Part shown: in pieces, positions 7,918 to 35,108 of the stretch
Position numbering within the stretch: the stretch's first letter is position 1
Layout: each line of letters opens with the position of its first letter
Notes under the pieces: generated by a model
The model's input: the letters and a program-made list of their open reading frames with translations, nothing else
The model's database searches: none
Told to the model about the DNA's origin: nothing
NCBI GenBank assembly: GCA_037441905.1
Contig: JBBIRF010000003.1
Span: 39,690 to 103,689 of the forward strand
From: Candidatus Aminicenantes bacterium
Lineage (GTDB): Bacteria > Acidobacteriota > Aminicenantia > Aminicenantales > CALLJL01
Length of the DNA stretch: 64,000 nucleotides
Direction of reading: 5' to 3'
Made by a program: the position numbers and the translations under genes

Positions 7918-8017
7918 TTTCTTTTAAACCCGGTTAAGACCGCATTTTTCTGTTAAGAGCGTCGGGCGGTCAGTTTCAGTCACCCTTGACCCATCGGGGT
8001 CGAGGAGGAGGTTGTCG

Positions 8018-8647: not shown

Positions 8648-8664
8648 GCCGAGAGGAGGAGAAG

Positions 8665-10373: not shown

Positions 10374-10410
10374 AGGCGCAGTAATGAGGAAAGAAGAAGG
10401 AGGCAAGAAG

Positions 10411-12791: not shown

Positions 12792-12800
12792 GAGGCAGCC

Positions 12801-17779: not shown

Positions 17780-18184
17780 TTATTTTTTCAGGAGCTTTTC
17801 GATGCGCGCCAAGAGGTCGGCAGCCACCACCGGCTTGTCGATGTAATCATCCGGACCAACCATGCCCTGCTCTTCGCCCTTGAATTGAAAACGGGTTCCC
17901 GCAATTTCTTTAACGGCCGAGACAAAGATAATCGGCGTCTCTTTGAATTCTTTGAACTCTTTCGAGGTTTTAATCGCGTGGCAGAGGGAGAAACCATCGA
18001 ACAGGCTGTCCATCATAATGTCAAGCAGAATCAAGTCTGGCTTTTCGCTGAAGATTTTTTCCTTGGCTTCCTTCGGGTTAGCCGCTGTCGCTACCTCATA
18101 AAGAGCTGATTTCAGGATGGGAGTAACGGCAGCGATAAAATCAGGGTCGTCATCGATGACCAGGATTTTTTTGGGAGTAGCCAT
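17780..18184 (-). CDS. Single-domain CheY-like response regulator receiver
   Basis: KKILVIDDDPDF ... LILLDIMM receiver motifs, 134 aa. Confidence 0.7.
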   Translation of the reverse strand: MATPKKILVIDDDPDFIAAVTPILKSALYEVATAANPKEAKEKIFSEKPDLILLDIMMDSLFDGFSLCHAIKTSKEFKEFKETPIIFVSAVKEIAGTRFQFKGEEQGMVGPDDYIDKPVVAADLLARIEKLLKK

Positions 18185-18573
18185 TAATTATTCCTCCTTT
18201 CTTCTTGAATAAAGGCATTTTTTATTGCCAGTTTTAACTCTTCCAGACCGAATGACTTGATAAAATAAAAAAAGATATCTTGTTCCCGCACCTTGGCTTC
18301 GAGCTTTTTCGAGTTTTTCTTGGTCATCATTATTACCTTAAGCTTTGGGTCAAGACTTTTCAAGATAGAAACAGCTTCGTATCCTTTCATCTCGGGAAGG
18401 TCGACCTCCAGCAGAAGGCAGTCGTAGCTGCCCTCGCTTATTTTCTTGATCGCCTCGGAAAGGTTTTTCCCTGTATCGACGCTGTAGCCATCATTTTCAA
18501 CCTGAGCTGCCAGGTCTTTTCTTTCCCGCGGGTCCGGGTCGATTATAAGGATTTTTTTCTCCGCCGACGTCAT
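18184..18573 (-). CDS. Single-domain response regulator receiver (start at MTSAEKKILIID, ATG 18573)
   Basis: Receiver motifs ILIIDPDPRERKDL ... LLLEVDLPEMKG; GGAG RBS before internal ATG; upstream part of ORF-track ORF lacks homology. Confidence 0.6.
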   Translation of the reverse strand: MTSAEKKILIIDPDPRERKDLAAQVENDGYSVDTGKNLSEAIKKISEGSYDCLLLEVDLPEMKGYEAVSILKSLDPKLKVIMMTKKNSKKLEAKVREQDIFFYFIKSFGLEELKLAIKNAFIQEERRNN

Positions 18574-18904
18574 GGCCAGCTCCCTACACTCAGGGATAGA
18601 GCAATTAACGTGCCAATTTAGCACCCGCCGCAGGGGCAGTAGCCATGCTAAATTATTGAAAATAAAGGATTTATTTTGGAGGAAAGACTGGCCGGAAGTG
18701 ATTCCTGGGAATAAATTATACCCTGAGGTATTTCTCCCCATCCTTATTCCAGAATTGCCACCTTATCGAAAGAAGAATAGAATCTTATCAAAATAAGTAT
18801 TTTCCGACAATAAAAAAAGCTTGCTTTTTTTCATTTTTTCGTATTAGGAATAGAAAGCAGGCAGACGTCCAGTGGCCTGGGGATTGATGCAGGATTAAAA
18901 GGCA

Positions 18905-18995
18905 GGCAGAGCAGCCTCCGGGCTGCTCTGTGGTCTTTTTGACCACTGGACGGGTGGGGCCAACCCCGAAAAGCGGGGCTGGCCCCATCTTTTTA
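18905..18995. terminator. Cluster of three stem-loops (CAGAGCAGCC-tccg-GGCTGCTCTG; TGGTC-ttttt-GACCA; GGGGCCAACCCCG-aaaa-GCGGGGCTGGCCCC followed by ATCTTTTTATTTC)
   Basis: Perfect/near-perfect GC-rich inverted repeats read directly; directly downstream of minus-strand hydrogenase operon stop (18993); T-tract on plus side, weaker U-tract on minus side. Confidence 0.5.
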
Positions 18996-19373
18996 TTTCA
19001 GGACATCGCTGATTTTAGCGATGGCCTCAAGCACTGGTTCGGAAATGTCCTTAGATGTCAAGCTTTGTGGTTGAATCCCGAGAAGGTATGATTTTTTCAC
19101 GTGACCGGGGCTGAGCAGGCTGAGGAACGAAGGCAGAAGCCGGTGGCTGAGGGAGGAACTCCAGAGGGCCTGAGCGAGCGGCATTAAGGTAATCCTGCCC
19201 GGGGCGGCACCGAAGTTAAGCGCGTCAATCAGGATGAAAGGCCGATTCTGGTTAGTTTCCCAGAAAACTTCGTCCTCCTCGATTTCCGACTCAAGGTAGG
19301 CGTTTTGATAACCGCTGGCTTTCAGGGTTTCAGCCACCACCAGGCCGGCCCCGTCGTCGCCCTTATCAACGCA
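18993..19373 (-). CDS. Hydrogenase maturation endopeptidase-like segment in the same frame as the hydrogenase large subunit, separated from it only by TGA (19374-19376); first canonical start (GTG 19340) would delete the conserved N-terminal strand and Ni-binding acidic motif
   Basis: ...KPLRPIIVGI-TGA-CVDKGDDGAGLVVAETLK aligns to MRTLVLGLGNDLFGDDGVGLHLV of the standalone protease; downstream Asp (ILIDAL) and His (SHRLLPSF) conserved. Confidence 0.5.
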   Translation of the reverse strand, partial: CVDKGDDGAGLVVAETLKASGYQNAYLESEIEEDEVFWETNQNRPFILIDALNFGAAPGRITLMPLAQALWSSSLSHRLLPSFLSLLSPGHVKKSYLLGIQPQSLTSKDISEPVLEAIAKISDVLK

Positions 19374-20732
19374 TCAGATGCCGACGATTATGGGGCGAAG
19401 CGGCTTCAACTCGGCTAACTTCTGTTGCCAATCAACTTCTTCTGTCGTCCGGACCTCGACAAGATGGGCTGAACAGCTGATACAGGGGTCAAACGCCCGG
19501 ACGACCATTTCCAGCCGGTCGCGGATTTGGTCTTCCTTTCCCTCGTTCAGGAGTTTTTGGGCCGCCAGGAAGCAGTAGCGCTCGATTTCCTCCGCATTCT
19601 GGGCCGTGGGCGTGATGATGTCGGCAAAGACGATGCGGCCGTCTTTGATTTCATAATGGTGGATGAGTAGACCTCGCGGCGCCTCGACCAGGCCAGTTCC
19701 TTTGCCCTCCCGGCTCGAATAGGCCGTAATCCCGGGGTCTTCAGGGTATTTAAGAATTTCGTCAACGAGAGCGGGAATTTTTTCAAAACAATACATAATC
19801 TCGATAGCTTGGGCGGCATTCTGGAAAAGCGGGTTTCTCTTCCACCTTTCGTTATAGAAACGGCGGAGAATTTTCTTGGCTTCGCCGGACAGCCTTTCAC
19901 CCAGCAGGTTCACCCTTGCCTGGGCGCCAACCGTATAGCTTTTTCCCTGCTACCGGCTCCGCTTGGCCGTCGAATGAGGAACGAAAAACTCGTTGGTCAG
20001 ACGACGGTAATCATCACGATGGATTTTTTCGCCCGTCGAAACCAGAATCTCATCTCCCCAGAGGCCATACTTTCCGTCGCCGGGTTCACAACAAGCGAAG
20101 ATAGCCTCGTCTTCCGGAATATCAGGATAGGGTAGGCTGCAGAAAAGCTCGGTGGTTTTATGGACAAACGGCATGAATTGAATAGCCCTGGCTTTAATCA
20201 GCAAGAGCTCTTCCCTGGTGGGGTAGCGGCCGAAACCGCCGATGACGGGGTTTTCCCCGTGGATGAACCGGCCGCTCAAGACCTTCATGATGTTATTCCC
20301 GAACTGCTTCATTTCCAGGGCAATCTTGACCTCGAAGGGAAACCGGGTTGCCATGGCGATGGCGTTCGGGAACCCGACAAAATCGGGCAGAGCAAGGTAG
20401 TAGAGGTGGAGAGAATGACTTTCGATATATTCACCGAGATGCATCAGTTCGCGAAGCAGGGTAACCTTTGGCGGCACCTTGACACCGAGGGCGTTTTCCA
20501 TCGCCCTGATAACGGCGTTTTTATGAGAAAGAGTGCAAATGGCGCAGACCCGGGGAGTTATGCTGACGTCTTCCTCCGGTGTTTTACCCACGGCTAATCT
20601 TTCGACGAGTCTCGGGCCTTCATTTATCAGAAACTTAACTTCGGTGACGACTTTCCCGTCTACAGTTACGGTTACTCCACCGTTACCTTCAACTCGAGCC
20701 AGATGGTCGATAGTTATCTTTTTCATCGTCAA
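19374..20732 (-). pseudogene. Group 3b (sulfhydrogenase alpha-like) [NiFe]-hydrogenase large subunit, single frame interrupted by in-frame TAG at 19950-19952 (pseudogene, sequencing error or recoded)
   Basis: N-terminal RVCAICTLSH (RxCGxCxxxH variant) and C-terminal DPCISCSAH Ni-Fe ligand motifs; 260-aa ORF and 179-aa ORF are in the same frame, conserved ...HSTAKRSR*QGKSYTVGAQAR.. spans the stop. Confidence 0.65.
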
Positions 20733-21511
20733 CGCCTCCCTGTTTTCAATTGGTGAAAGAATTCAGTAATCGTTGTCCCGGCATAAATCGACATGCGTTG
20801 TTTGATGCTTTCTAAATCAAACCCTTTGTCGAGGAGAAGCTGAAATTCAGCCACCCGGTTAGCCTCTTCCGTCGGCCCCCAGCACCCAACACAAGCCAGG
20901 TTGTGCGAGGGACAGACTGCTCCGCAGCCAGCTTTAGTCAGCGGCCCGAGACAGGGGATGTTCTTGTTGAGCAAGCAATCGTTCTCATGCCATTTACATT
21001 CGAGACACACCGGAAAGCGATAAAGCTCTGGCGGATGGCCGGCCAGGAGCCGGGTAAAAGTTGCCAGGAACTGTTCCTGGCCAATCGGGCAGCCAGGCAA
21101 ATAATAATCAACTTTGATAAAAGCATCGATGGGCTGAGAAGGGATAGGATGAACGTTTGTATGTTTGAGGTCCTGATAGACCTGACGAAATTCCTTCTCC
21201 CATGTGCCCGCGGCCGTAAGGGCTGCCTGGATTCCTCCTTCACAAGCACAATTACCAATAGCAATGACCACGCCTGCCCGTTCGCGGATGCTCAATAGTT
21301 CGGTTTTTTCCTCCTCGGTAGTGACCGACCCCTCGACTAAAGCCACGTCTACAGGACCGTGACTGTTGTCACTCTTGGCCATCAGAAAAGCTTCAATATC
21401 AGCGGCCTGGAAAATATTAACCAGCTCGGATTCACAATCGAGGATGAGGAGGGCATCGCCCGCACAGCCGGTCAGCTCAAAGACGCCGATTTTCACGCGG
21501 GTTTTTTCCAT
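20729..21511 (-). CDS. Group 3 [NiFe]-hydrogenase small subunit (delta-like)
   Basis: ELTGCAGD, GNCACEGG, YYLPGCP, CLGPLTKAGCGAVCPSHNLACVGCWGP cluster motifs. Confidence 0.8.
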   Translation of the reverse strand: MEKTRVKIGVFELTGCAGDALLILDCESELVNIFQAADIEAFLMAKSDNSHGPVDVALVEGSVTTEEEKTELLSIRERAGVVIAIGNCACEGGIQAALTAAGTWEKEFRQVYQDLKHTNVHPIPSQPIDAFIKVDYYLPGCPIGQEQFLATFTRLLAGHPPELYRFPVCLECKWHENDCLLNKNIPCLGPLTKAGCGAVCPSHNLACVGCWGPTEEANRVAEFQLLLDKGFDLESIKQRMSIYAGTTITEFFHQLKTGRR

Positions 21512-21524
21512 CGGGGTTTCCTCC

Positions 21525-22382
21525 TTAAATTAACTCTCTCATGTGGAGCACATCCCAGTAAGTAAAAACAGGACCGTCCAAACAGGTATAAATATAATCA
21601 ATCGCGCAGTGGCCGCATTTGCCGACACCGCATTTCATCCTTCTTTCGAGAGTCATTAAAATCTGATGTTTCGGAATGTTAAGCTTGATTAACTCTCTGA
21701 TGACGAACTTGTACATCACTGGCGGGCCGCAAACGAGAGCAAAGGTGTTCGCCGGGTCGACATTTTTTAACTTGGGAAAGAGAGTCGTGACGACACCGAT
21801 GTTTTCGGTCCAGGTTCCGGTATCATCAGCGTCAACGGTCAGATGGCATTCCAGGTCTCCCCGCTTCTTTAAATCAAAATATTCCTCCCTGAAAATCATC
21901 TCGGCCGGTCTTTTCGCGCCGTAGAGCACGCTCACCCGGCCAAACTGGTCCCGGTTATCCAGGCAGTAGAGAAGCACAGACCGGAGGGGTGCGGCCCCAA
22001 GGCCGCCGACGACGATGATGATATCTTTTCCGGTCATAGCTTCAACGGGAAATCCATTGCCGTAGGGTCCCCTCAGACCGATTAAAGAATTTTCCTTAAG
22101 ACGGAACAGGGCGTTCGTGACCGTCCCCACTCGCCGAATGCAAAACTCGAGTAAACCCGGCCTGGAAGGAGGGGAAGAAATGGAAAAAGGCGCTTCCCCT
22201 GCTCCGAGGACGGAAAGCATGGCAAACTGTCCAGCCCGGTAACGAAAGCTGAGCGCTTTTTCCATATCGGTCAGGCGGACCTGGAAGAATTTCACGTCAG
22301 CCGTCAAATTATAAGCCCTGACAATCCGGGCTGGTTCGGGTAGGAGAGGGTTGGGGAGAGTGTTTTTTAATTCCGTGTTCAT
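21525..22382 (-). CDS. Sulfhydrogenase gamma-like FAD/NAD(P)-binding subunit (HydG/AsrB-like) with C-terminal [2Fe-2S] CxxxxCxxC
   Basis: RAGQFAMLSV...PFSISS FAD motif, VGGLGAAPL NAD(P) motif, CGVGKCGHC. Confidence 0.7.
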   Translation of the reverse strand: MNTELKNTLPNPLLPEPARIVRAYNLTADVKFFQVRLTDMEKALSFRYRAGQFAMLSVLGAGEAPFSISSPPSRPGLLEFCIRRVGTVTNALFRLKENSLIGLRGPYGNGFPVEAMTGKDIIIVVGGLGAAPLRSVLLYCLDNRDQFGRVSVLYGAKRPAEMIFREEYFDLKKRGDLECHLTVDADDTGTWTENIGVVTTLFPKLKNVDPANTFALVCGPPVMYKFVIRELIKLNIPKHQILMTLERRMKCGVGKCGHCAIDYIYTCLDGPVFTYWDVLHMRELI

Positions 22383-23443
22383 GGAGTCACCTCAGAAGAA
22401 AGCCGAGCCCAAAAGGCGTTGACGGGCTTGCCTTCCAGGGCATCGGCCACTGATTTTACGTTAATTCCCACCGGGCAGGTAACCAGGCAGCGGCCGCAGC
22501 CGACACAGCTTGGTTTTCCGTATTTCGAGCCATACGCCTGGAGTTTATGAGTATACCAGAGCTTGAGCCGCGAGGATTTTTTCTCCCGGAAGTTCTCGCC
22601 GCCGGCCACCTGAGAATATTCGGGCAAGGTGCAAGAATCCCATTCCCGGACGCGCAACCCCGGCTTCCCGGCCAGCCGGATTTCGTCGCGGACGTTATAA
22701 CAATTGCAGGTGGGACAGACCATCGAGCACGACCCGCAGGCTAAACAGGATGTGCCTAATTTTTCCCAGAGCGAATCACGGTACTTGAGCTCCATCAGGT
22801 CAGGCATAAACACATAGTTTATCGAGGTCTTAAATGCCCTGGCCCTGTTCTCTCGCCAGTCGATGTACTTCTGGATGTCGGCTGTCGCCAGAGTCTCCTC
22901 GAAAAACTCGGGGACAAGGCGGACGAGGTCGTCTCCCTGGCTGGAACCTATCCAGGCGAGGTAATTGTCTCCCAGGTCGGTGAAAAAGAGGTCATAGCCT
23001 TCTTCGATGATGTCGGTATGGGTAGACTGGCAGAGGCAATTTTCGTCAGGCCAGCAGGAAAGACCGAGAATAAGGGTCCGCTGCCTGGCCTTAAGATAAT
23101 AAGAATCAGGGAAAACCTGGCTAAAAATGCGGTCGAGAATGAGAAGACCGTGAATGTCGCAAGGATGAATCCCGAACAGAATCCGGTCCTTGACCCAGGA
23201 AAAATCCTCTTCATAGCCGCGGGAGGTGAATTGGAACATGGTGAAACTCGGGGGGACGAAAAGCTTCTTGGGCGGCAGAAGAGTCCGGGTCGCCTTGAGG
23301 TCGATTTTGGGAATCTCGGACGACGCTACCGGGGCAAAGCTTGTTTTGTTTTCCCTGGTCAAAGGAGCCCACAGCTCCGCTCCGTCGGAAATGGCTCCGA
23401 GGAAGGGATACAGATTTTCCTTCTTAAGCTTTAGGATTCTCAT
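22379..23443 (-). CDS. Sulfhydrogenase beta-like subunit (HydB/AsrA-like, multiple [4Fe-4S])
   Basis: CLACGSCSMVCPTCNC and CVGCGRCLVTCP motifs; operon position upstream of gamma, small, large subunits. Confidence 0.7.
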   Translation of the reverse strand: MRILKLKKENLYPFLGAISDGAELWAPLTRENKTSFAPVASSEIPKIDLKATRTLLPPKKLFVPPSFTMFQFTSRGYEEDFSWVKDRILFGIHPCDIHGLLILDRIFSQVFPDSYYLKARQRTLILGLSCWPDENCLCQSTHTDIIEEGYDLFFTDLGDNYLAWIGSSQGDDLVRLVPEFFEETLATADIQKYIDWRENRARAFKTSINYVFMPDLMELKYRDSLWEKLGTSCLACGSCSMVCPTCNCYNVRDEIRLAGKPGLRVREWDSCTLPEYSQVAGGENFREKKSSRLKLWYTHKLQAYGSKYGKPSCVGCGRCLVTCPVGINVKSVADALEGKPVNAFWARLSSEVTP

Positions 23444-23525
23444 GGTTTCGACCCTCTGAATTCATATAATTTATACCTCCTGTTTGAGACACTCGAGCGT
23501 GCATTCCTGCATCGCTCTAAATATA

Positions 23526-23541
23526 TGCAAGATTTATGCCT
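23526..23541 (-). promoter_or_regulatory. Sigma-54 promoter (minus strand: AGGCAT-aaatc-TTGCA) ~80 nt upstream of hydB
   Basis: Reverse complement of 23526-23541 reads GGCATAAATCTTGCA with GG/GC spacing of the -24/-12 consensus; followed by AGGAGGT RBS and ATG. Confidence 0.55.
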
Positions 23542-23651
23542 AAATATCTAAGTTTTCCCCTTTTTGGATGCTTCTAACTATATATAAAGTCTATGGTTAG
23601 AGCAATCTCTTTTAATAATTTTTTCCCTGGGATAAAGAACTTAAACAAAAA

Positions 23652-23678
23652 GGGGAATTTTTCCCCACGACTGGGGAA
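23652..23678. promoter_or_regulatory. Candidate activator-binding palindrome GGGGAATTTTTCCCC plus adjacent GGGGAA half-site (also TTCCCC at 23555-23560)
   Basis: 6-bp arms GGGGAA/TTCCCC with TTT centre, ~115-135 bp upstream of the minus-strand sigma-54 promoter; same motif family upstream of hdrC copy 1. Confidence 0.45.
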
Positions 23679-23702
23679 TAAAGAAAGCCTGAGCCTGATT
23701 GT

Positions 23703-25070
23703 TCAGAGGGAGTCGAGGTTGATCCCGTATTTCTTAATCTTGGCCCACAAGGTCTTCCGGTCGATACCGAGGATTTGAGCGGCGGCGCTTCTATTTCCTT
23801 TTTGATCCTTGAGAACAGCCGTGATGTAATCTTTTTCAACTTCTGCCAGAGTCCGTCGGGGGCTCATCCAGCTGGGTTCGGAGGCAACCCGGCCGCTTAT
23901 TCCGTGGGTAATTAGGTCTTCGAGGTTAATCGAGTCTACCCTGGCGAGGACAACAGCCCGCTCGATTGTATTCTCTAATTCTCTGATATTTCCCGGCCAA
24001 TCATACTCCATTAGAGCCTTCATCGCTTGGGGCGTAATGCCTTTGATAGCCTTTTTGGCCTTTCGGTTATATTTCTGGAGGAAGTGCTCGGCTAAGAGGG
24101 TAATATCTTCTTTTCTTTCCCGCAGCGGGGGTAAATGAAGCGGGACGACATTAAGCCGGTAGAAAAGGTCTTCCCGAAACTTTCCCGCCTTGACAAGCTC
24201 AGCCAGGTTTTCGTTAGTCGCCGCCAGGATACGGACATCTACTTTGATCGGCCGGTTGCTGCCAATCCGGGTAACTTCTCTTTCCTGGATTACCCGCAGG
24301 AGCTTCGCTTGAATATTAGGGCTGATGTTGGACACTTCGTCAAAAAAAATAGTCCCGCCGTCAGCCACCTCGAACCGGCCGTGCTTGGTCTCGTGGGCAC
24401 CGGTGAAAGAGCCCTTGACATGGCCAAAAAGTTCGCTTTCAAAAAGAGTCTCGACCAGGGCGCCACAATCGACGACGACAAAAGGAGCGTTGCGTCGGCT
24501 GCTATGCCGGTGAATCTCGCGAGCAATAAGCTCCTTTCCTGTGCCGCTTTCTCCCGTGATCAGGACAGTCGATTCCGTCGGGCTCACCCTTCTGACGACG
24601 TCGAGCACTTTTTGCATGGCCGGACTCTTGCCAATGACCAGCTCGAATTCTATCTTGGCTTCGAGTTCCTGCCGCAAGTACATGTTTTCATAAAAAATCC
24701 GCCTGTTTTCCAGCGCTTTCCGGGTGACGACGCGGAGCTCCTCAGGGGTAAAAGGCTTGGGCATGTAATCGAAGGCGCCTCGTTTCATTGCTTCGACCGC
24801 TGATTCGATTGAACTGTAACCCGTGATGATGATAACCGGGGTTTCCGGGCTGACCTCTTTTATCCTTGAGAGAACATCCATACCCCTAATTCCAGGGAGT
24901 TTGAGGTCGAGAAAAACCAGGTGAAAAGTGTCTTTTTGAAAAATCTCCAGCCCTTCTTTTCCTTCCCTGGCTTGCTTGACTTCGTAGCCTTCCCGCGAGA
25001 GCACCTGATTCATCGCGTCGCGGATGGCTTCCTCGTCGTCAATGATTAGAATCTGAGCTCTTTCGGTCAT
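23703..25070 (-). CDS. Sigma-54-dependent response regulator (NtrC family: receiver + AAA+ + Fis-type HTH)
   Basis: Receiver ILIIDDEEAIRD, Walker A GESGTGKE, GAFTGA-like GSFTGA, C-terminal HTH. Confidence 0.85.
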   Translation of the reverse strand: MTERAQILIIDDEEAIRDAMNQVLSREGYEVKQAREGKEGLEIFQKDTFHLVFLDLKLPGIRGMDVLSRIKEVSPETPVIIITGYSSIESAVEAMKRGAFDYMPKPFTPEELRVVTRKALENRRIFYENMYLRQELEAKIEFELVIGKSPAMQKVLDVVRRVSPTESTVLITGESGTGKELIAREIHRHSSRRNAPFVVVDCGALVETLFESELFGHVKGSFTGAHETKHGRFEVADGGTIFFDEVSNISPNIQAKLLRVIQEREVTRIGSNRPIKVDVRILAATNENLAELVKAGKFREDLFYRLNVVPLHLPPLRERKEDITLLAEHFLQKYNRKAKKAIKGITPQAMKALMEYDWPGNIRELENTIERAVVLARVDSINLEDLITHGISGRVASEPSWMSPRRTLAEVEKDYITAVLKDQKGNRSAAAQILGIDRKTLWAKIKKYGINLDSL

Positions 25071-27045
25071 TGTCTGATTCCTTTTGCAGGGGCAGAACCA
25101 CGGTAAAGGTTGAACCTTTCCCGGGTTCGCTCGAAACTTCTATCGTCCCTTGATGTTTCTGGATGATGCTGTAGCTGATGGCTAAGCCAAGACCGGTACC
25201 TTTGCCGACTTCTTTGGTGGTGAAAAATGGTTCGAACAGCCGTGACATATCCTCTGGCCTGATCCCGTGGCCGTTGTCCGCAAAAGCGATTCTTATTTGC
25301 TTTTTCTCCAGGTCCATCGAAGTGCTTATGGTTAGCGTTCCTCGGCCGTCCATGGCTTCGGCGGCGTTAAGGATAATATTCATGAAGACCTGCTGTAACT
25401 GGGAAGCATCGGCAATCACACGGGGCAGCGCGCTATATTGCTTATTAATGGCGATGTTCTGGAATAGAGCCTGTTTTTCCATGATGGCCAGAGCCCGCTC
25501 GACAACTTCGTTGACGTCAGTGGCTACCATTTCCGGTTCTTTCGGCCGGGCAAACTCGAGCAACCCTTTAACGATATCCTTACACCGGCTGGTCTCTTTA
25601 ACTATCTTTCTTAAATTTTCGTAAGCTGGAGTATTCTTAGGCGTATCTTCGAGCAGCAGATGGCTGTAGATGAGAATGGCTCCCAGGGGGTTATTAATTT
25701 CATGAGCCACGCCCGCGGCCAGTTTGCCCAGGGAAGCAAGCTTTTCCGACTGAATTAGTTTCGTCTGCATCTCGGTCAGCTCTCTGGTTCTTGCTTCCAC
25801 TTTTTTCTCCAAGGTCCTCCCCCATTCCATCAGCGCTTCGTTCGCCTGACGGAGCTGGTCAATCATTTCGTTGAAGGAGGAAGCCAAATGGCCGAGTTCA
25901 TCCTTTGACCTGATATCAACCTTATGCGAGAGGTCACCCCTGGCTATTTCCTCCGTAGCCATGACCATTCTTTGCAGCGGTCGGATGATCTGCGTTGTCG
26001 AGAAATAGAGGATGACAAGCAGGAAGACGACGCAGAGCGAGGCCATAAAGGTAAAAGTTAGCATTAGTTTATTGGCCGTATCGATGTAAGGCTTTTCGAG
26101 CATGCCGACATAAAGGATGCCGATGATTTTGCCCTCGACATTTCTAATGGGTTCATAAGCGGTAATGTACCAGTCGGTCACGACAAAGGCCCGGTCGACC
26201 CAGGCCTTACCTTCGTCCAGGACTGCCTTTTTTACCTGGGCTGAAAGCAGGGTTCCGATGGCTCTTTCGCCCTTTTCGTTCCGGACGTTGGTCGAGACCC
26301 GGAGGTCGTTGAGAAAAATAGTGGCCGTGCCAACGTCCCGGCCTTTATATTTTTCGCCCTTAAAAACGGTTTCCTTAATCCGGTCGACGATTTCGTAATT
26401 CCGGTTGAGGAGAATTCCTCCATAAAGCACCCCCCGGGTGCGATGGCTTTCATCCTGAATGCTGGCCGCCGCCTTGAGGACAAGCCCGCGGTCTTCGAAG
26501 CTCTTGGGCTTCGGCTCTGCCCGGGGAGTGGGGATGAATTCAAGATAAGCTTGCGCCGCCAGGTCTTCGCCCTCAAGCCTGAGCTGCTCGCCCGGGACAA
26601 CCTGAGGGCCGGCTACTACCCCGCCTTTCAGGGCTAAGCGGACGAGTTCATCTTCGGCTTGAGAATCACCCACGACCCCTGGATTTCTTGTCCGGATGAT
26701 AACTTTTCCAGCTCCGTCCGTAAGCGTGAGAAAATCCAGCCCGAAATCTGTCCTTACCCGGGATAAATACCGGAGCAAAAGGTCGGTATTTCCCGATTTG
26801 AGGGCTTCTTGAATGCTTTCTCTTGAAGCCGTGAGAGTGACGATCTGCTGAATATCGTTAAGTTTTTCGTTGAAAACCATCCAGGCAGCGGCCAGGTCGT
26901 GCTTGACTTTCAGCTGGGCCTGGCCGATGAGAGTGCGCCTAACCAGGCGCGAGCCGATGACGAGCGAAATCAGCCCGCCGACAACAATAACTGCCAGGAA
27001 GCTCAGAATGAGCTTCGTCCGGAGGGAAAGAGCCCTTTCTTTCAT
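25039..27045 (-). CDS. Sensor histidine kinase with periplasmic sensing domain, HAMP, HisKA, HATPase_c
   Basis: Two TM segments flanking ~280-aa extracytoplasmic region, H-box AHEINNPL, G-boxes DNGHGI / GTGLGLAIS. Confidence 0.8.
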   Translation of the reverse strand: MKERALSLRTKLILSFLAVIVVGGLISLVIGSRLVRRTLIGQAQLKVKHDLAAAWMVFNEKLNDIQQIVTLTASRESIQEALKSGNTDLLLRYLSRVRTDFGLDFLTLTDGAGKVIIRTRNPGVVGDSQAEDELVRLALKGGVVAGPQVVPGEQLRLEGEDLAAQAYLEFIPTPRAEPKPKSFEDRGLVLKAAASIQDESHRTRGVLYGGILLNRNYEIVDRIKETVFKGEKYKGRDVGTATIFLNDLRVSTNVRNEKGERAIGTLLSAQVKKAVLDEGKAWVDRAFVVTDWYITAYEPIRNVEGKIIGILYVGMLEKPYIDTANKLMLTFTFMASLCVVFLLVILYFSTTQIIRPLQRMVMATEEIARGDLSHKVDIRSKDELGHLASSFNEMIDQLRQANEALMEWGRTLEKKVEARTRELTEMQTKLIQSEKLASLGKLAAGVAHEINNPLGAILIYSHLLLEDTPKNTPAYENLRKIVKETSRCKDIVKGLLEFARPKEPEMVATDVNEVVERALAIMEKQALFQNIAINKQYSALPRVIADASQLQQVFMNIILNAAEAMDGRGTLTISTSMDLEKKQIRIAFADNGHGIRPEDMSRLFEPFFTTKEVGKGTGLGLAISYSIIQKHQGTIEVSSEPGKGSTFTVVLPLQKESDNDRKSSDSNH

Positions 27046-27132: not shown

Positions 27133-28596
27133 TTAATCTCTTTTTATCTGTTCCACCAACTCGCGACGGCTGTTGTAAATGTTGATGATTAGAGGCATGT
27201 CACCCGGAAGGGCATGAGTGCCGCATGCATGGCAGGGGTCATACGGACGAAAAGCCATCTCCGCTAAATTGAGTAGTCCGTCGGAAACCTTGCCTTCCTT
27301 GATAAAAGCCTTGGCTGCTTTTTCGATCGACATCGTAATGGCGGCTGAATTATTCATCGTGGCGACAATCAGGTTGGCTTCAGTCACAATGCCTTTTTCG
27401 TCGGTTTTATAATGGTGGAATAACGTTCCCCGGGGAGCTTCGACTACCCCCACTCCCTCGGTGGGCGTTTCTGTCGGCACCCGCCGGATGTCCGGGCTGG
27501 TAATTTCTTTGTCTTCCAGCAGGGCTACCATAGCCTCAGCTGCCTGGAGGGCTTCGATCAGACGAGCCCAGTGGAATGCCAGGGTGTTATGAGCCGGTTT
27601 TCCTCCGAGGACCTGGTACATCCTTTCGTATTCCTGTTGCGCTAAGGGAGTGGCCATGCCGTCAGCCGCGTTTAAGCGGGCGAGAGGCGCCACTCGGTAA
27701 ATACTGGTTTCTCTTCCCTCTACGAAGCCCTTCCAGCCAATTTTTTTCAGGTAAGGAAACTTAATGTAAGTCCAGGGCTCGACGTGTTCAGCCACGTGTT
27801 CGAGATAATCAGCGGCCTTAAACTTGGCGAACTCCTTGCCTTCGGGGTCGACCACCCGGATCAGGCCGTCATAAAAATTAACCCTGTTCTTCTCATCAAC
27901 CAGCCCCATGTAATAAGTGACGAGTTTATAAGCGTCGCCGACTACCAGGTCGACGTACTCTTTGTTTTTCAAGACGACGTCGTCGAAGATTTTCAGGGCA
28001 AACTTGGCGAATTCAACCGCATACCGGGCTGTCTCTAAGAATTTTAAGCGATGTTCCTCATCCAGCCCTTTGGAAACGCCGCCCGGAAGTCCGCAGACAG
28101 GGTGAATAACCTTGCCGCCGAGGTAGTTGATGATATCGCGACATTCCCGGCGGACCCTGATTACCTGGCCGCCGATTTCCAGCCCTACTTTACCCAGGAC
28201 ACCCAGAATATTTCTCTCCGCCGCCGGCGCCTGGGGGCCGACGACAAAATCAGGACCGCCCAGGAAAAAGAAATGAAGCGAATGGTCCTCCATCATAAAG
28301 GTGTTGTAAATTAACTCTCTTATCTTGCGGGCGGTTGGGGTTGGCTCGACATGAAAAACGGCGTCAACGCATTTTGTCGAGGCCATATGATGGGCGGTGG
28401 GGCAGACACCGCAGATGCGAGGGGTAATCCGGGGCATCTCTTCCACCGGACGGCCGACCGCGAACTGCTCAAAACCGCGCAGCTCCGGCACTTGAAGAAA
28501 AGCCCTTTCGACATCCCCGGCATCATTGAGGAAAATCTCTATCTTTCCGTGACCTTCAAGCCTGGTTATCGGGTCGATGGTTATTCGCTGACTCAT
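27133..28596 (-). CDS. mvhA: Mvh/Vhu-type (group 3c) [NiFe]-hydrogenase large subunit
   Basis: PRICGVCPTAHH and DPCHACGTHA motifs, 25-aa C-terminal extension. Confidence 0.85.
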   Translation of the reverse strand: MSQRITIDPITRLEGHGKIEIFLNDAGDVERAFLQVPELRGFEQFAVGRPVEEMPRITPRICGVCPTAHHMASTKCVDAVFHVEPTPTARKIRELIYNTFMMEDHSLHFFFLGGPDFVVGPQAPAAERNILGVLGKVGLEIGGQVIRVRRECRDIINYLGGKVIHPVCGLPGGVSKGLDEEHRLKFLETARYAVEFAKFALKIFDDVVLKNKEYVDLVVGDAYKLVTYYMGLVDEKNRVNFYDGLIRVVDPEGKEFAKFKAADYLEHVAEHVEPWTYIKFPYLKKIGWKGFVEGRETSIYRVAPLARLNAADGMATPLAQQEYERMYQVLGGKPAHNTLAFHWARLIEALQAAEAMVALLEDKEITSPDIRRVPTETPTEGVGVVEAPRGTLFHHYKTDEKGIVTEANLIVATMNNSAAITMSIEKAAKAFIKEGKVSDGLLNLAEMAFRPYDPCHACGTHALPGDMPLIINIYNSRRELVEQIKRD

Positions 28597-29567
28597 TTTA
28601 TTGCCTCCAGTTTCCTGCGGCCAAGAATTGACTTGGGCAGGCTAAAACGATAGAAGGTGCCGGCGGGGTCGGCGATAGTCTGGACAACCTTTTCTATTTC
28701 CTTTTCGTCCTTAAAATCGATAAGCGAAGCTAAGGCGGAAAGGAATTTGGCGCCCTGGTCGTAGACCTGGTCGGTTGGCCCGAAGCAACCCCGGCAGGGC
28801 ATGTTGGCCGTGATGCATCTTTCTTCGCAACCAGTTCTCGTAGCCGGTCCCATGCAGATAACCCCCTGGGCCAAAAAGCACTTTTCCGGGTCAAGAAGGA
28901 CTTCCCACGGCCGCTTAAACTCTTTAATCGTTAATTTCTCCGGCTTGGTCTTATTCCGGTCGCAATCGTCGCACAGAGATTTGTTGGGAGAAAGCACAGC
29001 TCCCTTCGGAGGGAGCTTACCCTCTAAAATAGCCCCGACAGCGTTGAGGATGAGGTGGCGGGGAGGAGCACAGCCGGGGAGATAATAGTCAACATCGATA
29101 ACCTGGTCGAGGGCCCTCACGGTGTCATAAAAAGCGGGCAGGGTTAATTCTTTGCCCTCGACAACGACTTTTTCCTGAGGAACAACGCCATCAGGGTTAA
29201 CCGTGGACGGGGTGGTGAAATAGGCCCGGCGGAAAATGGCCTCTTTGTTCCAGAAATTCGCCAGCCCGGGTATTCCGCCAAGATGCGAGCAGCTTCCGAA
29301 GGCAACGACGAGCTGCGATTTCCGGCGGAGCAGATGAACCATTTCTTCCTGTTCCGATAACCTGACCGACCCGTTAATAAAGCTAACCGCGATCGAGCCG
29401 TCAGCCATGGCCTCGACATCTTTTTTCTTAAAATCGAGGGCTACAGGCCAGAAAACGATGTCAACCGCTTCGACTACCTTAAGGATGTCTTCGGCCAGGT
29501 CGACAACCGCTTCCTCGCAGCCGCCGCAAGATGCACACCAGTAAAAAGCAACTTTGGGCTTACTCAT
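28593..29567 (-). CDS. mvhG: Mvh-type [NiFe]-hydrogenase small subunit
   Basis: [12 protein letters not shown]-terminus, multiple Cys cluster motifs ([21 protein letters not shown]). Confidence 0.8.
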
Positions 29568-29994
29568 GGGAACCTCCGTTGAACTTGAAGTTTAGCGGCC
29601 CGAGGCGCCGGACCTGTTCGGTAAACTCATTAACCACCTGCTGAAACCTGGCCCCTTCTGAGGCCGAAACCCATTCGAGCCTGAACCTTTCTTTTTCGAT
29701 GCCCAGCTGTTCGAGCAACCGCGAAAGAAGTTTATAACGGCGCAAGGCTTTATAATTACCTTCTTGATAATGGCAATCTCCAGGATGGCAGCCGGAAATC
29801 AGCACGCCGTCAGCCCCCTCGCGGAATGCCTTGAGGACAAACTGGGGGTCAACCCGGCCGCTGCACATAACCCGGATGATCCTTATGTTAGGGGCATAAG
29901 TCATCCTGGCCGTGCCTGCGAGGTCGGCCCCGGTATAAGAACACCAATTACAAAGGAACCCCACTAAGCGGGGTTCAAACCCAGCTTGACTCAT
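29560..29994 (-). CDS. mvhD: MvhD-like [2Fe-2S] electron-transfer subunit
   Basis: [18 protein letters not shown]...MCSGRVD...[11 protein letters not shown] motif pattern typical of MvhD. Confidence 0.8.
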
Positions 29995-30090
29995 TATTGC
30001 CTCCTCACCAGCTAAAATCGGATGACATGTTTTTAAAATAAAGCTTTACATTATATCTAAAACGGAAACAGGTTGCTACCTCCCGTGCGA

Positions 30091-31848
30091 TTATACAAGT
30101 AATAACCCTTCGATTTCGGCCATGATTTGCCGGTCGCGAAAGTGTTTCTGCTGAGCCGCACCCGACGGACAGGCGGCGACGCATGTCCCGCATCCTTTAC
30201 ACAGGGCGTCGTTTATGACGGATATTTCCTTTTCTCGGTCAAATGTTATGGCCGTAAATGGACAGAGGCCGACACAAATCTGACAGCCGGAGCAAAGGTT
30301 TTCGTCTATCTCCGCGGTTACTGGCTCAAGGCTGAAACTGGCTTTATCAGCCAGGGCTAAAGCTTCCGCCGCCGCCCCGCCTGCCTGAGCTACCGTATCG
30401 GGAATATCCCGGGGAGCCTGGCAACATCCCGCGAGAAAGATGCCGTCGGAGAAGGTCGAGACCGGAGCTAATTTCGGGTGTCTTTCTAAGAAGAAAGTAT
30501 CCTGACTGCAGGAAATGTTGAAGGTTTTGGCCAGCTGGTTATGGTCGACTGACGGCTCAAGCCCTGTTGCCAGAATCACCATATCGACGGGAATTCGCCG
30601 GACGACGCCCAGGAGCGTATCTTCCACCCGGATGATAAGCTTCCCTTCCTCTTCCTTGGTCACGGCCAGGTCGGTAATTTCCGAAACCCGACCGCGGATA
30701 AATTTTGTTCCTTCCTCGAGCAGACGATGATAAAACTCTTCATAGCCCTTACCGAAACAACGCATGTCGATATAAAAGTCATAAATGTCAGCTTCGGTTT
30801 TTTCTTTAATCAAATGGGCGAACTTGAGGGAGTACATGCAGCAGACCCGGGAGCAATATTCGTTGTAATTTTCATCTCTTGAGCCGACACAGTGAACTAT
30901 CCCGACTGATTTCGGTTCTTCTCCGCTAGCCAGCAAGATTTTGCCGCCGGTAGGACCAGAAGCATTCACCAGATGCTCAAACTCCAGGGCTGTAATCACG
31001 TTCGGCAACCTGCCGTAGCCGTAGGCCGGGATGCGGCGGGCGTCAAACGGCTTAAAACCGGTGGCCAGGATTATCGACCCGACTTCGACCTCCACCTCCT
31101 CTTCTTTCATTTCATGGTTAACGGCCTGTCGGTCGCAAACCTTGACGCAGAGCTGGCATTTGCCCGTCTTAAAATGGATGCAGGCGGATTCATCGATAAA
31201 AGGAACCATCGGAACAGCTTGGCGGATGGGAACCCGGATGGCGGTCGATGGCCCAAGATATAGCTCGGAATGGATAACCTGGCGGCCGTACTTATCTTCA
31301 TAGGTGATTGCTCCTGTCGGGCAGAAATGGGCGCAGGCGGTACAGCCGATGCAAGCTTCTGAAGGTTCGCCAAAAGGAGGCATTACTTTCCTCTCTGTAC
31401 CGCGGTCGATAAAACTAATCGCACAGGCGCCCACCACTTGTTCGCAAGCGCGGACGCACAGACCGCAGAGGATGCATTTTTCATTTGGGTCCTTTATCGG
31501 GAAACGCGGCTTATCAATGCCCATTTCCCTGGCAAGCCTCTGGACAGGTTCAGCGGCCGGCGCCCGGGCTAGAAGCATTTCCACGTTAAGCCGCCGGCTT
31601 CTGAGGACCCGCGGGGAGGCGGTTTCAACCTCCATCCCGTCTTGAACCTTATTGTTACATGACGTAATAAGGTCTTTCCGGCCCCGCACGCTTACTTCAA
31701 CCAAACAGACGCGGCAGGCGGCATAAGGCTCGATTAATGGATGATAGCAAAGAGTCGGGATGGAAATATCTAATTTCTTGGCCGCCTGGAGGATGGTTGT
31801 CCCCTCTTCTACCTGAATTTTCTTGCCATCAATCGTAACGGTAACCAT
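30091..31848 (-). CDS. Fusion: NuoG-like N-terminus + HdrA C-terminal half (paralog of 12801-14576)
   Basis: CYHPLIEPYAACRVC 2Fe-2S, CILCGLCVRAC, CIGCTACAHFCP, HCVGSRD...YCSRVCCMYSLKFAHLIKE, C-terminal CSGCQICVGLCP / CKGCGTCVAACP. Confidence 0.7.
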   Translation of the reverse strand: MVTVTIDGKKIQVEEGTTILQAAKKLDISIPTLCYHPLIEPYAACRVCLVEVSVRGRKDLITSCNNKVQDGMEVETASPRVLRSRRLNVEMLLARAPAAEPVQRLAREMGIDKPRFPIKDPNEKCILCGLCVRACEQVVGACAISFIDRGTERKVMPPFGEPSEACIGCTACAHFCPTGAITYEDKYGRQVIHSELYLGPSTAIRVPIRQAVPMVPFIDESACIHFKTGKCQLCVKVCDRQAVNHEMKEEEVEVEVGSIILATGFKPFDARRIPAYGYGRLPNVITALEFEHLVNASGPTGGKILLASGEEPKSVGIVHCVGSRDENYNEYCSRVCCMYSLKFAHLIKEKTEADIYDFYIDMRCFGKGYEEFYHRLLEEGTKFIRGRVSEITDLAVTKEEEGKLIIRVEDTLLGVVRRIPVDMVILATGLEPSVDHNQLAKTFNISCSQDTFFLERHPKLAPVSTFSDGIFLAGCCQAPRDIPDTVAQAGGAAAEALALADKASFSLEPVTAEIDENLCSGCQICVGLCPFTAITFDREKEISVINDALCKGCGTCVAACPSGAAQQKHFRDRQIMAEIEGLLLV

Positions 31849-31859
31849 TTCTTACCTCC

Positions 31860-33686
31860 TCACTCAACTCTTACGGCGCCAAAATTGCATACGTCAAAAC
31901 AGACGCCGCACTTAATACACTTGGCCTGGTCTATCTTATGAGATTCGCCCTTAGCCCCGGTTATGGCTTCAGAGGCGCAGTTCCGCCGGCAGACGTCGCA
32001 GCCATGACCCTTTTCCAGACAGATTTGCGGGTCAATGGTGTAAACGTTAAGTTGCCGGCAGACATGAGCCGGGCATTTTTTATCACGGATATGGGTGATA
32101 TATTCATCGCGGAAGTAGCGAAGCGTCGTGAGAACCGGGTTAGGAGCGGTTTTTCCTAAACCGCAGAGCGACGCTTCTTTGACGGTCTGGGCGAGTTCTT
32201 CGAGCAAAACCAGGTCTTCTTCTGTCCCTTTGCCTTCAGTGATTCGGGTGAGGATATCGAGCATGGCCTTTGTTCCCTCCCGGCAAGGAGTGCATTTGCC
32301 GCAGCTTTCATCCTGGGTGAAAGACAGGAAGTAACGAGCGACATCCACCATGCAGGTATCTTCGTCCATGACGACCATGCCGCCCGAGCCCATCATGCTT
32401 CCCGCCTCAGTCAAGCTTTCATAATCAATCGGGAGGTCGATCTTTTCCGCCGGGATGCATCCTCCGGAAGGGCCGCCAGTTTGGACAGCTTTGAATTTTT
32501 TCCCGCCAGGAATACCGCCGCCGATGTCATAAATAATTTCGCGCAGGGTTATTCCCATCGGGACCTCAACCAGGCCGGTGTTGTTAATTTTGCCGACAAG
32601 AGAAAAAACCTTGGTACCCTTTGAGGTCGGTGTCCCGATCGAGGCGAACCATTTTCCTCCCCGGTCGATGATAACAGGGACATTAGCCCAGGTTTCAACG
32701 TTATTGATGCAGGTAGGTTTACCCCAGAGTCCCTTTTCCGCCGGATAAGGCGGCCTCGGTCTTGGTTCGCCCAAACGGCCCTCGATTGAGGCCAGCAGGG
32801 CGGTTTCCTCGCCGCAAACAAAGGCGCCGGCTCCCCGGACAACTCTGATGTCGAAGTCAAAACCGGTCCCTAAGATATCATGACCGAGCAGGCCAAGACT
32901 GCGGGCCCGGTCGAGTGCGATATAGATTCTTTTTACGGCCAGGGGATATTCATTCCGGACATAAATGAAGCCCTGGGTCGCCCCGATGGCCTTGGCCCCG
33001 ATGAGCATTCCCTCGATAACCGAATGCGGGTCGGCTTCGAGGATGCTTCGGTCCATGAAAGCGCCCGGGTCGCCTTCGTCGCCGTTGCAGACGAGATATT
33101 TTTCTCCGTTGGGCGAAGGTGAATTCCGGACGAGTTGCCACTTTAGGCCCGTGGGAAAACCGGCACCGCCCCGGCCCCGCAGCCCGGAAACGGTGATTTC
33201 CTGGATTATTTCTTCCGGCGTCATCTGGGTCAGAGCCTTAACCAGGGCTTTATACCCGTCACGGGCTATGTAATCTTCGATTTTTTCCGGGTCGATGAGG
33301 CCGCGGTTGCGCAGGGCGACGAGCACCTGTTTCTTGAAAAAGTTGATTTCGCTCAAAACCGGCACGGGTGTTTTTTCTTCGGGCGGCTGGTACATGAACT
33401 TCTTCACCGGCCGGCCTTTAAGGAGATGTTCTTCCACCAGCAGCGGCACATCTTTCACGCTCAGGGTTTGGTAAAAGATGTTGCCGGGCTGGACGACAAG
33501 CAGCGGGCCTCGTTCACAGAACCCGTTGCAACCGGTAGTCACCACTTTAACTTCGTTTTCCAGCCCCTGGCGCTTAATTTCTTTTTCCAGAGCTTCTTTA
33601 ATTTCGAAGGCGTGGTTGGAGACACACCCCGTCCCGGCGCAGACCATTAAGTGGGTCCGGTATAGCTTTTCTTTTGCTTCCGCCAT
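31860..33686 (-). CDS. NuoF-like NADH-binding FMN/[4Fe-4S] subunit with N-terminal Trx-like Fdx domain
   Basis: GRGGAGFPTGLKWQ, ESCGKCTPCREG, C-terminal Cys clusters. Confidence 0.8.
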   Translation of the reverse strand: MAEAKEKLYRTHLMVCAGTGCVSNHAFEIKEALEKEIKRQGLENEVKVVTTGCNGFCERGPLLVVQPGNIFYQTLSVKDVPLLVEEHLLKGRPVKKFMYQPPEEKTPVPVLSEINFFKKQVLVALRNRGLIDPEKIEDYIARDGYKALVKALTQMTPEEIIQEITVSGLRGRGGAGFPTGLKWQLVRNSPSPNGEKYLVCNGDEGDPGAFMDRSILEADPHSVIEGMLIGAKAIGATQGFIYVRNEYPLAVKRIYIALDRARSLGLLGHDILGTGFDFDIRVVRGAGAFVCGEETALLASIEGRLGEPRPRPPYPAEKGLWGKPTCINNVETWANVPVIIDRGGKWFASIGTPTSKGTKVFSLVGKINNTGLVEVPMGITLREIIYDIGGGIPGGKKFKAVQTGGPSGGCIPAEKIDLPIDYESLTEAGSMMGSGGMVVMDEDTCMVDVARYFLSFTQDESCGKCTPCREGTKAMLDILTRITEGKGTEEDLVLLEELAQTVKEASLCGLGKTAPNPVLTTLRYFRDEYITHIRDKKCPAHVCRQLNVYTIDPQICLEKGHGCDVCRRNCASEAITGAKGESHKIDQAKCIKCGVCFDVCNFGAVRVE

Positions 33687-33699
33687 TTTTCACTCCTTC

Positions 33700-34089
33700 C
33701 TACAGGTCGGTCTTTTCGCTGCCAATACCCAGGGCATAGGCAGTGACGATTTGTCCCCCGAGGACATGCTTCTCGAAGATCTCCTGGGCCTTTTTCTCAG
33801 TCAGGTCGACGTACTTAACCGGAGCCTGGCCGGCCAGCTCGACCGTTGCCATCGGCTCGCGGCTGCAGAGGCCGGCACATCCGGATGTCGTCAGAAGAAC
33901 GTCCGTCGTTCCTCGCTTTTCCACTTCCCGGAGAAAAGCATTCATGATATTTCTGGCGCCGGCCGCAATCCCGCAAGTGCCCATATGGACAATGATTTTG
34001 GCCTTGAATTGGCCCTGCTCGCGGATAAAAATCGACTTTCTGGCCTCTTGCCTTATTTTTTCGAGGTCTTCAAGCGTGAGCTTTGGCAT
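33700..34089 (-). CDS. Stand-alone thioredoxin-like [2Fe-2S] ferredoxin (homolog of the N-terminal domain of the NuoF-like protein)
   Basis: IIVHMGTCGIAAGA...SGCAGLCSREP, aligns to residues 1-120 of 10917-12791 product. Confidence 0.6.
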   Translation of the reverse strand: MPKLTLEDLEKIRQEARKSIFIREQGQFKAKIIVHMGTCGIAAGARNIMNAFLREVEKRGTTDVLLTTSGCAGLCSREPMATVELAGQAPVKYVDLTEKKAQEIFEKHVLGGQIVTAYALGIGSEKTDL

Positions 34090-34101
34090 GGCTTCCTCTC
34101 C

Positions 34102-34557
34102 TCATTTCTTGTATTTTTTGATGATGCCCGGGACCTTCGTTTGAGTAACTTTTCCGTGGACTTCCTCGCCAACCATAACTACGGGCGCAAGGCCACAGCA
34201 CCCCAGGCAACGGACAGCATCCAGGCTGAAAAGCCGGTCTTCGCTCGTCTCGCCCGCCTTTATGCCGAGTTCCCGCTCGAATTTCTCCAGAACCAGCTGG
34301 GCTCCGCGGACATGACAGGCGGTCCCGAGACACACATGGATGGGATGTTTGCCCTTAGGTTTGAGGCTAAAAGCCCGGAAAAAAGTAGCTAAGCTAAGAA
34401 TGCGACTAAGGGGGACATCCATCTCCCGGGAAATTTGCTCCAGGGCTTCCCGCGGCAGGTAGGAATATTCTTCCTGCAGGTCCTGGAGCATGGCGATGAG
34501 GGAACTCTCATCGCGAGCGTATTTTTCCAGGATTTCAGAGACTTTGGCTTCGACCAT
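34102..34557 (-). CDS. NuoE-like [2Fe-2S] subunit
   Basis: CLGTACHVRGA...CLGCCGLAPV. Confidence 0.75.
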   Translation of the reverse strand: MVEAKVSEILEKYARDESSLIAMLQDLQEEYSYLPREALEQISREMDVPLSRILSLATFFRAFSLKPKGKHPIHVCLGTACHVRGAQLVLEKFERELGIKAGETSEDRLFSLDAVRCLGCCGLAPVVMVGEEVHGKVTQTKVPGIIKKYKK

Positions 34558-35101: not shown

Positions 35102-35108
35102 GGCTATC

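Follow-up and report, generated by a model that had tools for sequence, protein, structure and literature searches.

What drives transcription of the hydBGDA hydrogenase genes of Candidatus Aminicenantes bacterium? This question was addressed in a 64,000-nt stretch of contig JBBIRF010000003.1 (positions 39,690–103,689; hereafter the window), in which a 259-bp intergenic region (23444..23702) separates the gene of an NtrC-type response regulator from hydB (22379..23443, minus strand), the first gene of the four-gene operon hydB-hydG-hydD-hydA (19374..23443, minus strand). It is quite probable, judging from sequence comparison, that this region holds a sigma-54-dependent hydBGDA promoter together with an enhancer about 120 bp upstream of it, that the enhancer would be bound by the neighbouring regulator, and that the operon is part of a predicted three-operon regulon.

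Promoter and dyad upstream of hydB

The candidate promoter, AGGCAT-aaatc-TTGCA (AGGCATaaatcTTGCA), is located on the minus strand at 23541..23526, approximately 85–97 bp upstream of the hydB start codon (ATG at 23443). Its GG (23540-23539) and GC (23528-23527) dinucleotides show the exact GG-N10-GC spacing of a -24/-12 element, and 9 of 11 positions fit the consensus TGGCAC-N5-TTGCW. The predicted transcription start would lie near position 23515. A more stringent pattern, GGCAY-N5-TTGCW, occurs exactly three times in the window (7904, plus strand; 18614 and 23540, minus strand), compared to 0.45 expected occurrences, and all three sites are intergenic and have the same orientation as the operon downstream. 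No sigma-70-like promoter was found in the region 23300..23800.

The putative enhancer, or upstream activating sequence (UAS), is a dyad at 23652..23666 (GGGGAAtttTTCCCC on the minus strand, GGGGAATTTTTCCCC on the plus strand), which forms a perfect palindrome with 6-bp arms and a 3-bp centre. From its centre to the -24 GG the distance is 119 bp, which places the centre at about -144 relative to the predicted start; the hydB ATG follows about 216 bp downstream of it. Therefore, the “about 120 bp upstream of hydB” given in a preliminary description of this DNA holds for the distance to the promoter, not to the gene. The promoter, the 6-bp-arm palindrome and the additional GGGGAA/TTCCCC half-sites reported there were all found in the positions assigned to them.

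Orthologous loci were identified by scanning the regulator protein against species-representative genomes, which yielded metagenome-assembled genomes labelled as Aminicenantes (some of them mislabelled) with 58–85% identity. Seven of these loci (L001–L005, L007 and L008) have their genes in the same order, namely those for the [NiFe] small and large subunits, the kinase and the regulator, then the intergenic region, hydB, hydG and hydD. Comparative analysis revealed that GGCAT-N5-TTGCA is invariant upstream of hydB in all nine orthologous loci; the MAFFT alignment, whose mean column identity is 55%, has 20 invariant columns, 12 of which are made up by GGCAT and TTGCATA. The GGGG-N7-CCCC dyad is present in eight of the nine (L001–L008), with a score of 8/8 or 7/8 (6/8 in L007). 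In the ninth, L021, the upstream DNA is missing and the regulator gene is truncated: the latter breaks off at residue 272 and directly joins the hydB promoter (L021:4069-4900), as would be explained by a deletion or an assembly join.

The centre of the orthologous dyads is placed 112–124 bp from the promoter GG, while the length of the intergenic region varies between 245 and 404 bp and the distance from the regulator stop codon to the dyad between 33 and 195 bp. This fixed distance, maintained despite the variable lengths, indicates that the dyad is positioned relative to the promoter and not to the upstream gene. In the typical layout of sigma-54 promoters the UAS lies approximately 80–150 bp upstream, or 100–150 bp in the textbook pattern, where looping is assisted by integration host factor (IHF) (PMC7057263); the dyads of hydB and its orthologues are thus within this range, as the preliminary description had assumed for the palindrome. 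The conserved core of the dyad is TGGGG-N7-CCYCA rather than the 6-bp arms GGGGAA/TTCCCC, and a limited literature check found no earlier description of this motif.

Other elements of the region are less widely conserved. The half-site GGGGAA (plus strand; TTCCCC on the minus strand) at 23673..23678, 6 bp upstream of the dyad, is kept only in the two closest relatives, L001 and L002. A further half-site, GGGAAAAAA, is found on the minus strand at about 23626..23618, and a half-site-like element, GGGGAAAA (23560..23553, minus strand), is located 13–20 bp upstream of the -24 GG; a weaker version of the latter was detected in L001 and L002 only. A box conserved approximately 5–25 bp upstream of the hydB dyad in L003–L008 (GTCAAAATnGAACAG; e.g. 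L003:11375-11392) has no counterpart in the window, L001 or L002. Of the other loci, L013 has a differing motif, and L012 is rearranged, with the operon of REC genes described below placed before hydB and a run of N (L012:8417-8430) inside the regulator gene. In L009–L011, which have a higher GC content and 58–62% identity, the order hydrogenase-kinase-regulator is still kept, the regulator gene abuts the next gene, and no promoter/dyad pair was found within the fetched loci.

A short open reading frame (ORF) of 13 codons (23424..23465, minus strand; 5–11 codons in L001–L004, L006 and L008) precedes hydB. It lies 8–12 nt past a strong GGAGG, and its end falls at the start codon of hydB or overlaps it, in many cases in the form ATGA. 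Its peptide sequence is not conserved, and it may provide translational coupling or encode a leader peptide. Analysis with Rfam revealed nothing credible in 23350..23800, which includes the intergenic region and leader; the only Rfam matches in the window are three tRNA genes located elsewhere (43552..43710, plus strand, and 47709..47780, minus strand) and unrelated to the promoter.

Sibling promoters in the window

The other two stringent sites were analyzed in the same manner, with dyads scored as GGGG-N7-CCCC matches of at least 7/8 with an A/T-rich spacer. By chance, such dyads occur at about 2.3e-4 per bp, i.e. about 0.005 per 20-bp band. The site TGGCAC-gttaa-TTGCT (18615..18600, minus strand) precedes an operon encoding two REC-only proteins, a hybrid kinase, a HycI-like protease, HypB and HypA. 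Its dyad, GGGGAGAAATACCTC (minus-strand reading; 18725..18739), is centred 118 bp upstream of the GG, and the promoter/dyad pair recurs in eight orthologous loci (L001–L004, L007, L008, L012 and L021) at distances of 118–131 bp. The ORF listed at 18184..18741 is over-extended, its likely start being the ATG at 18573.

The third site, TGGCAC-ctttt-TTGCT (7903..7918, plus strand), is located upstream of an operon (8018..14576) with hdrC/hdrB/hdrA-like and NuoEF-like genes. Two dyads are present here: a distal one, GGGGAGAAAATTCCCC (7766..7781), with an N8 spacer and 130.5 bp from the GG, and a proximal one, GGGGAAATTTACCTC (7788..7802), 109 bp from the GG. A promoter of this type (TGGCAT/TGGTAT-N5-TTGC) is kept in nine metagenomic hdrC-like orthologues (L081–L086, L089, L107 and L137), all nine of which also contain the proximal dyad, at 108–115 bp; a weaker GGG-N7-CCC usually occurs about 20 bp further upstream. 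In contrast, the dyad is present in none of 40 hdrC-like homologues without a sigma-54 site. The idea that the hydB motif is common to the hdrC promoter, raised in the preliminary description, is thus borne out by the dyads there and in the orthologues, but the site then singled out (7766..7781) is the less conserved distal copy, and the conserved counterpart of the hydB dyad is the proximal GGGGAAATTTACCTC.

In summary, each of the three stringent sites in the window has a dyad centred 109–131 bp upstream, and so have 16 of the 18 stringent sites in orthologous genome loci, whereas none was found at any of five weaker, intragenic -24/-12 look-alikes in the window. Pooling of 28 promoter/dyad pairs from the three operon classes gave the consensus sequences tGGGGAaAaat.CCyCa (dyad) and TtGGCAy-N5-TTGCw (promoter). 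The presence of the same dyad at the same distance from three sigma-54 promoters argues that the three operons form one regulon, concerned with hydrogen and redox metabolism. The single regulon previously suggested for hydB and hdrC therefore gains a third member, at 18615..18600. A second hdrC/hdrB/hdrA-like cluster (38380..40693, minus strand) was considered as a further member and rejected, since it has neither an upstream sigma-54 site nor a dyad. Other dyads in the window (e.g. at 38150, 46971 and 51028) lack a -24/-12 partner and are therefore regarded as chance matches.

Most sibling promoters also carry an IHF-like sequence, WATCAANNNNTTR, approximately 41–45 bp upstream of the GG. Matches with no more than one mismatch were found in 17 of the 28 promoters, compared to about 21% of shuffled controls. 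The corresponding place upstream of hydB is occupied by an A/T-rich box, TATATATAGTTAG (23586..23574, minus strand), which is a possible DNA-bending site.

Regulator, proposed mechanism and rival explanations

The gene directly upstream of the intergenic region (23703..25070, minus strand) encodes a 455-amino-acid response regulator of the NtrC type, an enhancer-binding protein (EBP), in agreement with its initial description as an NtrC-family activator. It consists of a REC domain with the phosphorylatable residue D55, an AAA+ domain with the Walker A motif GESGTGK (at 173) and GSFTGA (at 220), a variant of the GAFTGA loop that contacts sigma-54, and a C-terminal, Fis-type HTH_8 domain; the Pfam matches are Response_reg, Sigma54_activat (E = 1e-71), AAA_lid_14 and HTH_8. 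The recognition-helix region, “GIDRKTLWAKIKKY”, is conserved among the orthologues. The closest solved structures (PDB) are those of Aquifex NtrC1 (4l4u, 1ny5), NtrC4 and ZraR. The best NCBIfam equivalog, AtoC, scored 500.8 bits against a cut-off of 714 and all others were also below their cut-offs; the protein is therefore considered a member of the NtrC family without a name of its own. No other EBP gene was found in the window, and this protein is the presumed activator of the hydB promoter. Its gene overlaps by 32 nt with that of a sensor histidine kinase (25039..27045, minus strand), in which two transmembrane helices flank a periplasmic Cache domain (about residues 36–323), followed by HAMP, HisKA and HATPase domains.

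On this basis, the following course of events may be proposed. RNA polymerase containing sigma-54 would bind the GG (-24) and GC (-12) elements at 23541..23526 as a closed complex, as the conserved motif suggests. The Cache/HAMP kinase, to judge from its domain architecture, would sense an extracytoplasmic ligand and phosphorylate D55 of the regulator. The activated regulator would then bind the TGGGG-N7-CCCCA dyad (23652..23666) through an HTH_8 dimer, a step suggested by adjacency, dyad symmetry and fixed spacing, and would assemble there into an AAA+ ring. The A/T-rich spacer might loop, possibly with the help of an IHF-like protein, which at the hydB promoter can be proposed only tentatively. 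Finally, as established for this protein family, the GSFTGA loop would contact sigma-54 and ATP hydrolysis would open the promoter.

Several observations weigh against this interpretation. The 9/11 promoter match is by itself at chance level (13 such matches in the window, about 10 expected), and the hydB promoter deviates from the consensus at -26 (A) and -21 (T). Neither the window nor the fetched Aminicenantes loci yielded an rpoN gene; a tblastn search of the window and 160 loci with an approximate query for the RpoN C-terminal domain matched only loci of Latescibacterota and Paenibacillaceae, and a limited literature search found no paper naming both Aminicenantes and sigma-54. The IHF-like box is degenerate at the hydB promoter, where only its AGTTA half is kept. 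The evidence that pairs the regulator with the dyad is indirect, namely adjacency and co-conservation. Moreover, hydA contains in-frame stops (see below), and hydBGDA may therefore be partly defunct in this genome. To these may be added the T-run that follows the dyad, which is considered below.

The expected number of 9/11 matches is the starting point of the view that the motifs arose by chance in A/T-rich intergenic DNA and that transcription of hydBGDA either begins at a sigma-70-type promoter that escaped recognition or continues into the operon from the regulator gene. Since the hydB promoter is conserved in the orthologous loci, it can be regarded as real even though its match alone is not significant: the motif is invariant in nine orthologues against a background identity of 55%, 28 promoter/dyad pairs show a fixed spacing, with a chance expectation of about 0.005 per site, and the search for a sigma-70-like site was negative. 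Chance is therefore an extremely improbable explanation. Only slightly more credit, and still very little, is due to the proposal that the palindrome is mainly an intrinsic terminator of the kinase-regulator operon. It is situated 36 nt past the regulator stop codon, and the corresponding RNA (a GGGGAA/UUCCCC hairpin followed by UUUUUG) fits the expected pattern: the stem has six pairs, including four G-C pairs, the loop has 3 nt, and a T-run (TTTTTG) follows in the DNA. However, the T-run is missing in most orthologues and is not conserved at the sibling sites; the spacer is usually not self-complementary, so that orthologues and siblings could form a 4-bp stem only; the RNA folds no better than shuffled controls (z -0.4 to -1.6); and in the minimum-energy fold of the window sequence the left arm base-pairs with the half-site upstream of the dyad. 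Moreover, the same type of dyad lies in the hdrC-like intergenic region, whose flanking genes are divergent and do not end there, and it is the distance to the promoter that is fixed, rather than that to the preceding stop codon. A secondary terminator role of the dyad in this genome alone is possible.

A different objection accepts the promoter and the dyad and assigns the latter to another protein, i.e. an EBP or repressor encoded elsewhere, the adjacent regulator having other targets. We regard this as unlikely, albeit deserving of some weight: such genomes generally possess more than one EBP, the link between regulator and dyad is indirect, and L009–L011 retain the regulator with no promoter/dyad pair found within the loci fetched. 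Nevertheless, the 64 kb analyzed contain a single EBP gene along with three dyad-bearing sigma-54 promoters; wherever an orthologue has this intergenic region (including the rearranged L012), the regulator gene directly precedes a dyad-bearing promoter; and the HTH region and the dyad are conserved jointly. Activation of a sigma-54-dependent hydBGDA promoter by the adjacent regulator is thus the preferred explanation.

Hydrogenase genes and related systems

The operon controlled by the predicted promoter encodes a group 3b (sulfhydrogenase-like) [NiFe] hydrogenase. Its four subunits are homologous to the Pyrococcus sulfhydrogenase, with sulfhyd_HydB/ShyB, ShyC/HydG, HydD and HydA as the top NCBIfam matches (E values of 1e-55 to 1e-93, below the equivalog cut-offs); accordingly, “hydB” denotes a homologue of the sulfhydrogenase beta subunit that scores under the NCBIfam equivalog cut-off. 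The hydA gene of the window contains an in-frame TAG (19952..19950, minus strand) at a position where all nine orthologues have Tyr, and its terminal TGA (19374..19376) coincides with a Gly of the G-L/I/M-G motif of the orthologues. Selenocysteine at the in-frame stop was ruled out, since the codon is TAG and Tyr is found in all orthologues. Orthologous HydA proteins run on in frame to 580–582 amino acids (L001:14314-16056, L003:14358-16100, L008:14314-16062), and their extension resembles a hydrogenase maturation endopeptidase (Pfam HycI, E = 7.7e-5 in L001, at the cut-off); they would represent fusions of a large subunit with an endopeptidase. The ORF 18993..19340 is a remnant of this endopeptidase-like domain, and the window hydA looks like a pseudogene or the result of consensus errors. 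Just past the hydA/endopeptidase frame, a strong G+C-rich hairpin (GGGGCCAGCCCCG...CGGGGTTGGCCCC; 18945..18990, minus strand) is probably the true hydBGDA terminator, about 210 bp before the next dyad.

Upstream of the kinase gene, a Vhu/Mvh-like [NiFe] hydrogenase is encoded (small subunit, 28593..29567; large subunit, 27133..28596; minus strand), preceded by NuoG-, NuoF- and NuoE-like, PHP and HATPase genes. The whole group (27133..35840, minus strand) looks like an NAD(P)-linked, possibly electron-bifurcating, NiFe hydrogenase. The best match of the large subunit is VhuA, and 26 residues follow its DPCHACGTH motif; since this C-terminal extension is kept, the enzyme is of the processed, catalytic type. 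Further upstream, an [FeFe]-hydrogenase-like protein carrying a putative Fe-S domain at its C-terminus is encoded (36182..38019, minus strand) beside a HATPase_c_2 (anti-sigma-kinase-like) gene, followed by the second hdrC/hdrB/hdrA-like cluster mentioned above; no sigma-54 site or dyad was found upstream of the 36182..38019 region.

The arrangement can be compared with several known systems. In the HoxA/HupR cascades (HoxBC-HoxJ-HoxA of Cupriavidus necator; HupUV-HupT-HupR), hydrogenase operons are activated by an NtrC-family response regulator whose gene lies next to hydrogenase genes; sigma-54 promoters mediate this in C. necator and Bradyrhizobium. The location of the regulator gene beside hydrogenase genes is common to these systems and the Aminicenantes locus. 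The latter differs in its Vhu/Mvh-like hydrogenase with a C-terminal extension and in its two-transmembrane Cache/HAMP kinase, as opposed to a soluble PAS kinase. An H2-sensing cascade of the HoxBC/HupUV type, which would call for a regulatory (group 2b) hydrogenase lacking such an extension and for a soluble PAS histidine kinase, is not supported and was rejected on account of the C-terminal extension, the Vhu-like affinity and the membrane Cache kinase. In the FhlA system of Escherichia coli (hyc/hyp), the structural genes of a hydrogenase and the hyp maturation genes are both controlled from sigma-54 promoters with UAS and IHF, and the second regulon member here likewise contains HycI-like, HypB and HypA genes. 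However, FhlA, which has GAF domains, is a one-component EBP that senses formate and not a phosphorylated response regulator, and both the hydrogenase class and the DNA motif are different.

Systems of the NtrC/glnAp2 type (E. coli glnAp2; Aquifex NtrC1 and NtrC4) resemble the present one in the -24/-12 promoter with dyad or tandem sites approximately 100–150 bp upstream, and in a REC-AAA+-HTH_8 response regulator with a histidine kinase partner. They differ in their recognition sequence (TGCACC-N5-GGTGCA for NtrC, TGGGG-N7-CCYCA here) and in their targets (nitrogen assimilation versus hydrogenase and redox operons); a membrane Cache kinase is a further distinguishing feature of the Aminicenantes pair. 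DVU2394, a Desulfovibrio EBP with experimentally mapped targets, has the GSFTGA variant (PMC4641369). With DVU2395 it forms a two-component system that controls the adh-hdr/flox operon DVU2405-2399 of D. vulgaris Hildenborough from a sigma-54 promoter (PMC4641369, PMC3333781). Both systems comprise a response-regulator EBP with GSFTGA and a target operon of energy metabolism, of the heterodisulfide-reductase/flavin-oxidoreductase type in the case of DVU2394 and with hdrC/hdrB/hdrA-like and NuoEF-like genes here, and DVU2394 is the nearest functional analogue found. Its validated site is a direct repeat (PMC3333781), unlike the inverted repeat here, and the predicted Aminicenantes regulon extends to hyp maturation genes and a group 3b hydrogenase. 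HdrA-like and NuoEF-like genes also adjoin more distant homologues (about 50% identity) of the Aminicenantes kinase-regulator pair.

In this lineage, the Cache-kinase/NtrC pair always follows the NuoEFG-linked [NiFe] hydrogenase. A speculative and rather improbable extension of the model is that the pair acts, through the TGGGG-N7-CCYCA enhancer motif, as the master switch of a lineage-specific hydrogen/electron-bifurcation regulon, possibly signalled directly or indirectly by the co-encoded hydrogenase. If true, this would represent a hydrogen- or redox-sensing route unrelated to HoxBC-HoxJ. The mechanism as such is that of textbook sigma-54/EBP systems and therefore opens no new question; the value of the finding lies in regulon prediction. 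For an uncultured phylum, it provides a concrete, testable regulon in which one two-component system and one DNA motif would link three operons, encoding (i) a group 3b hydrogenase, (ii) hydrogenase maturation and signalling proteins and (iii) an Hdr/NuoEF-type complex. This may be of use in reading Aminicenantes metatranscriptomes, and the motif is clean enough to serve for genome-wide regulon prediction in the lineage.

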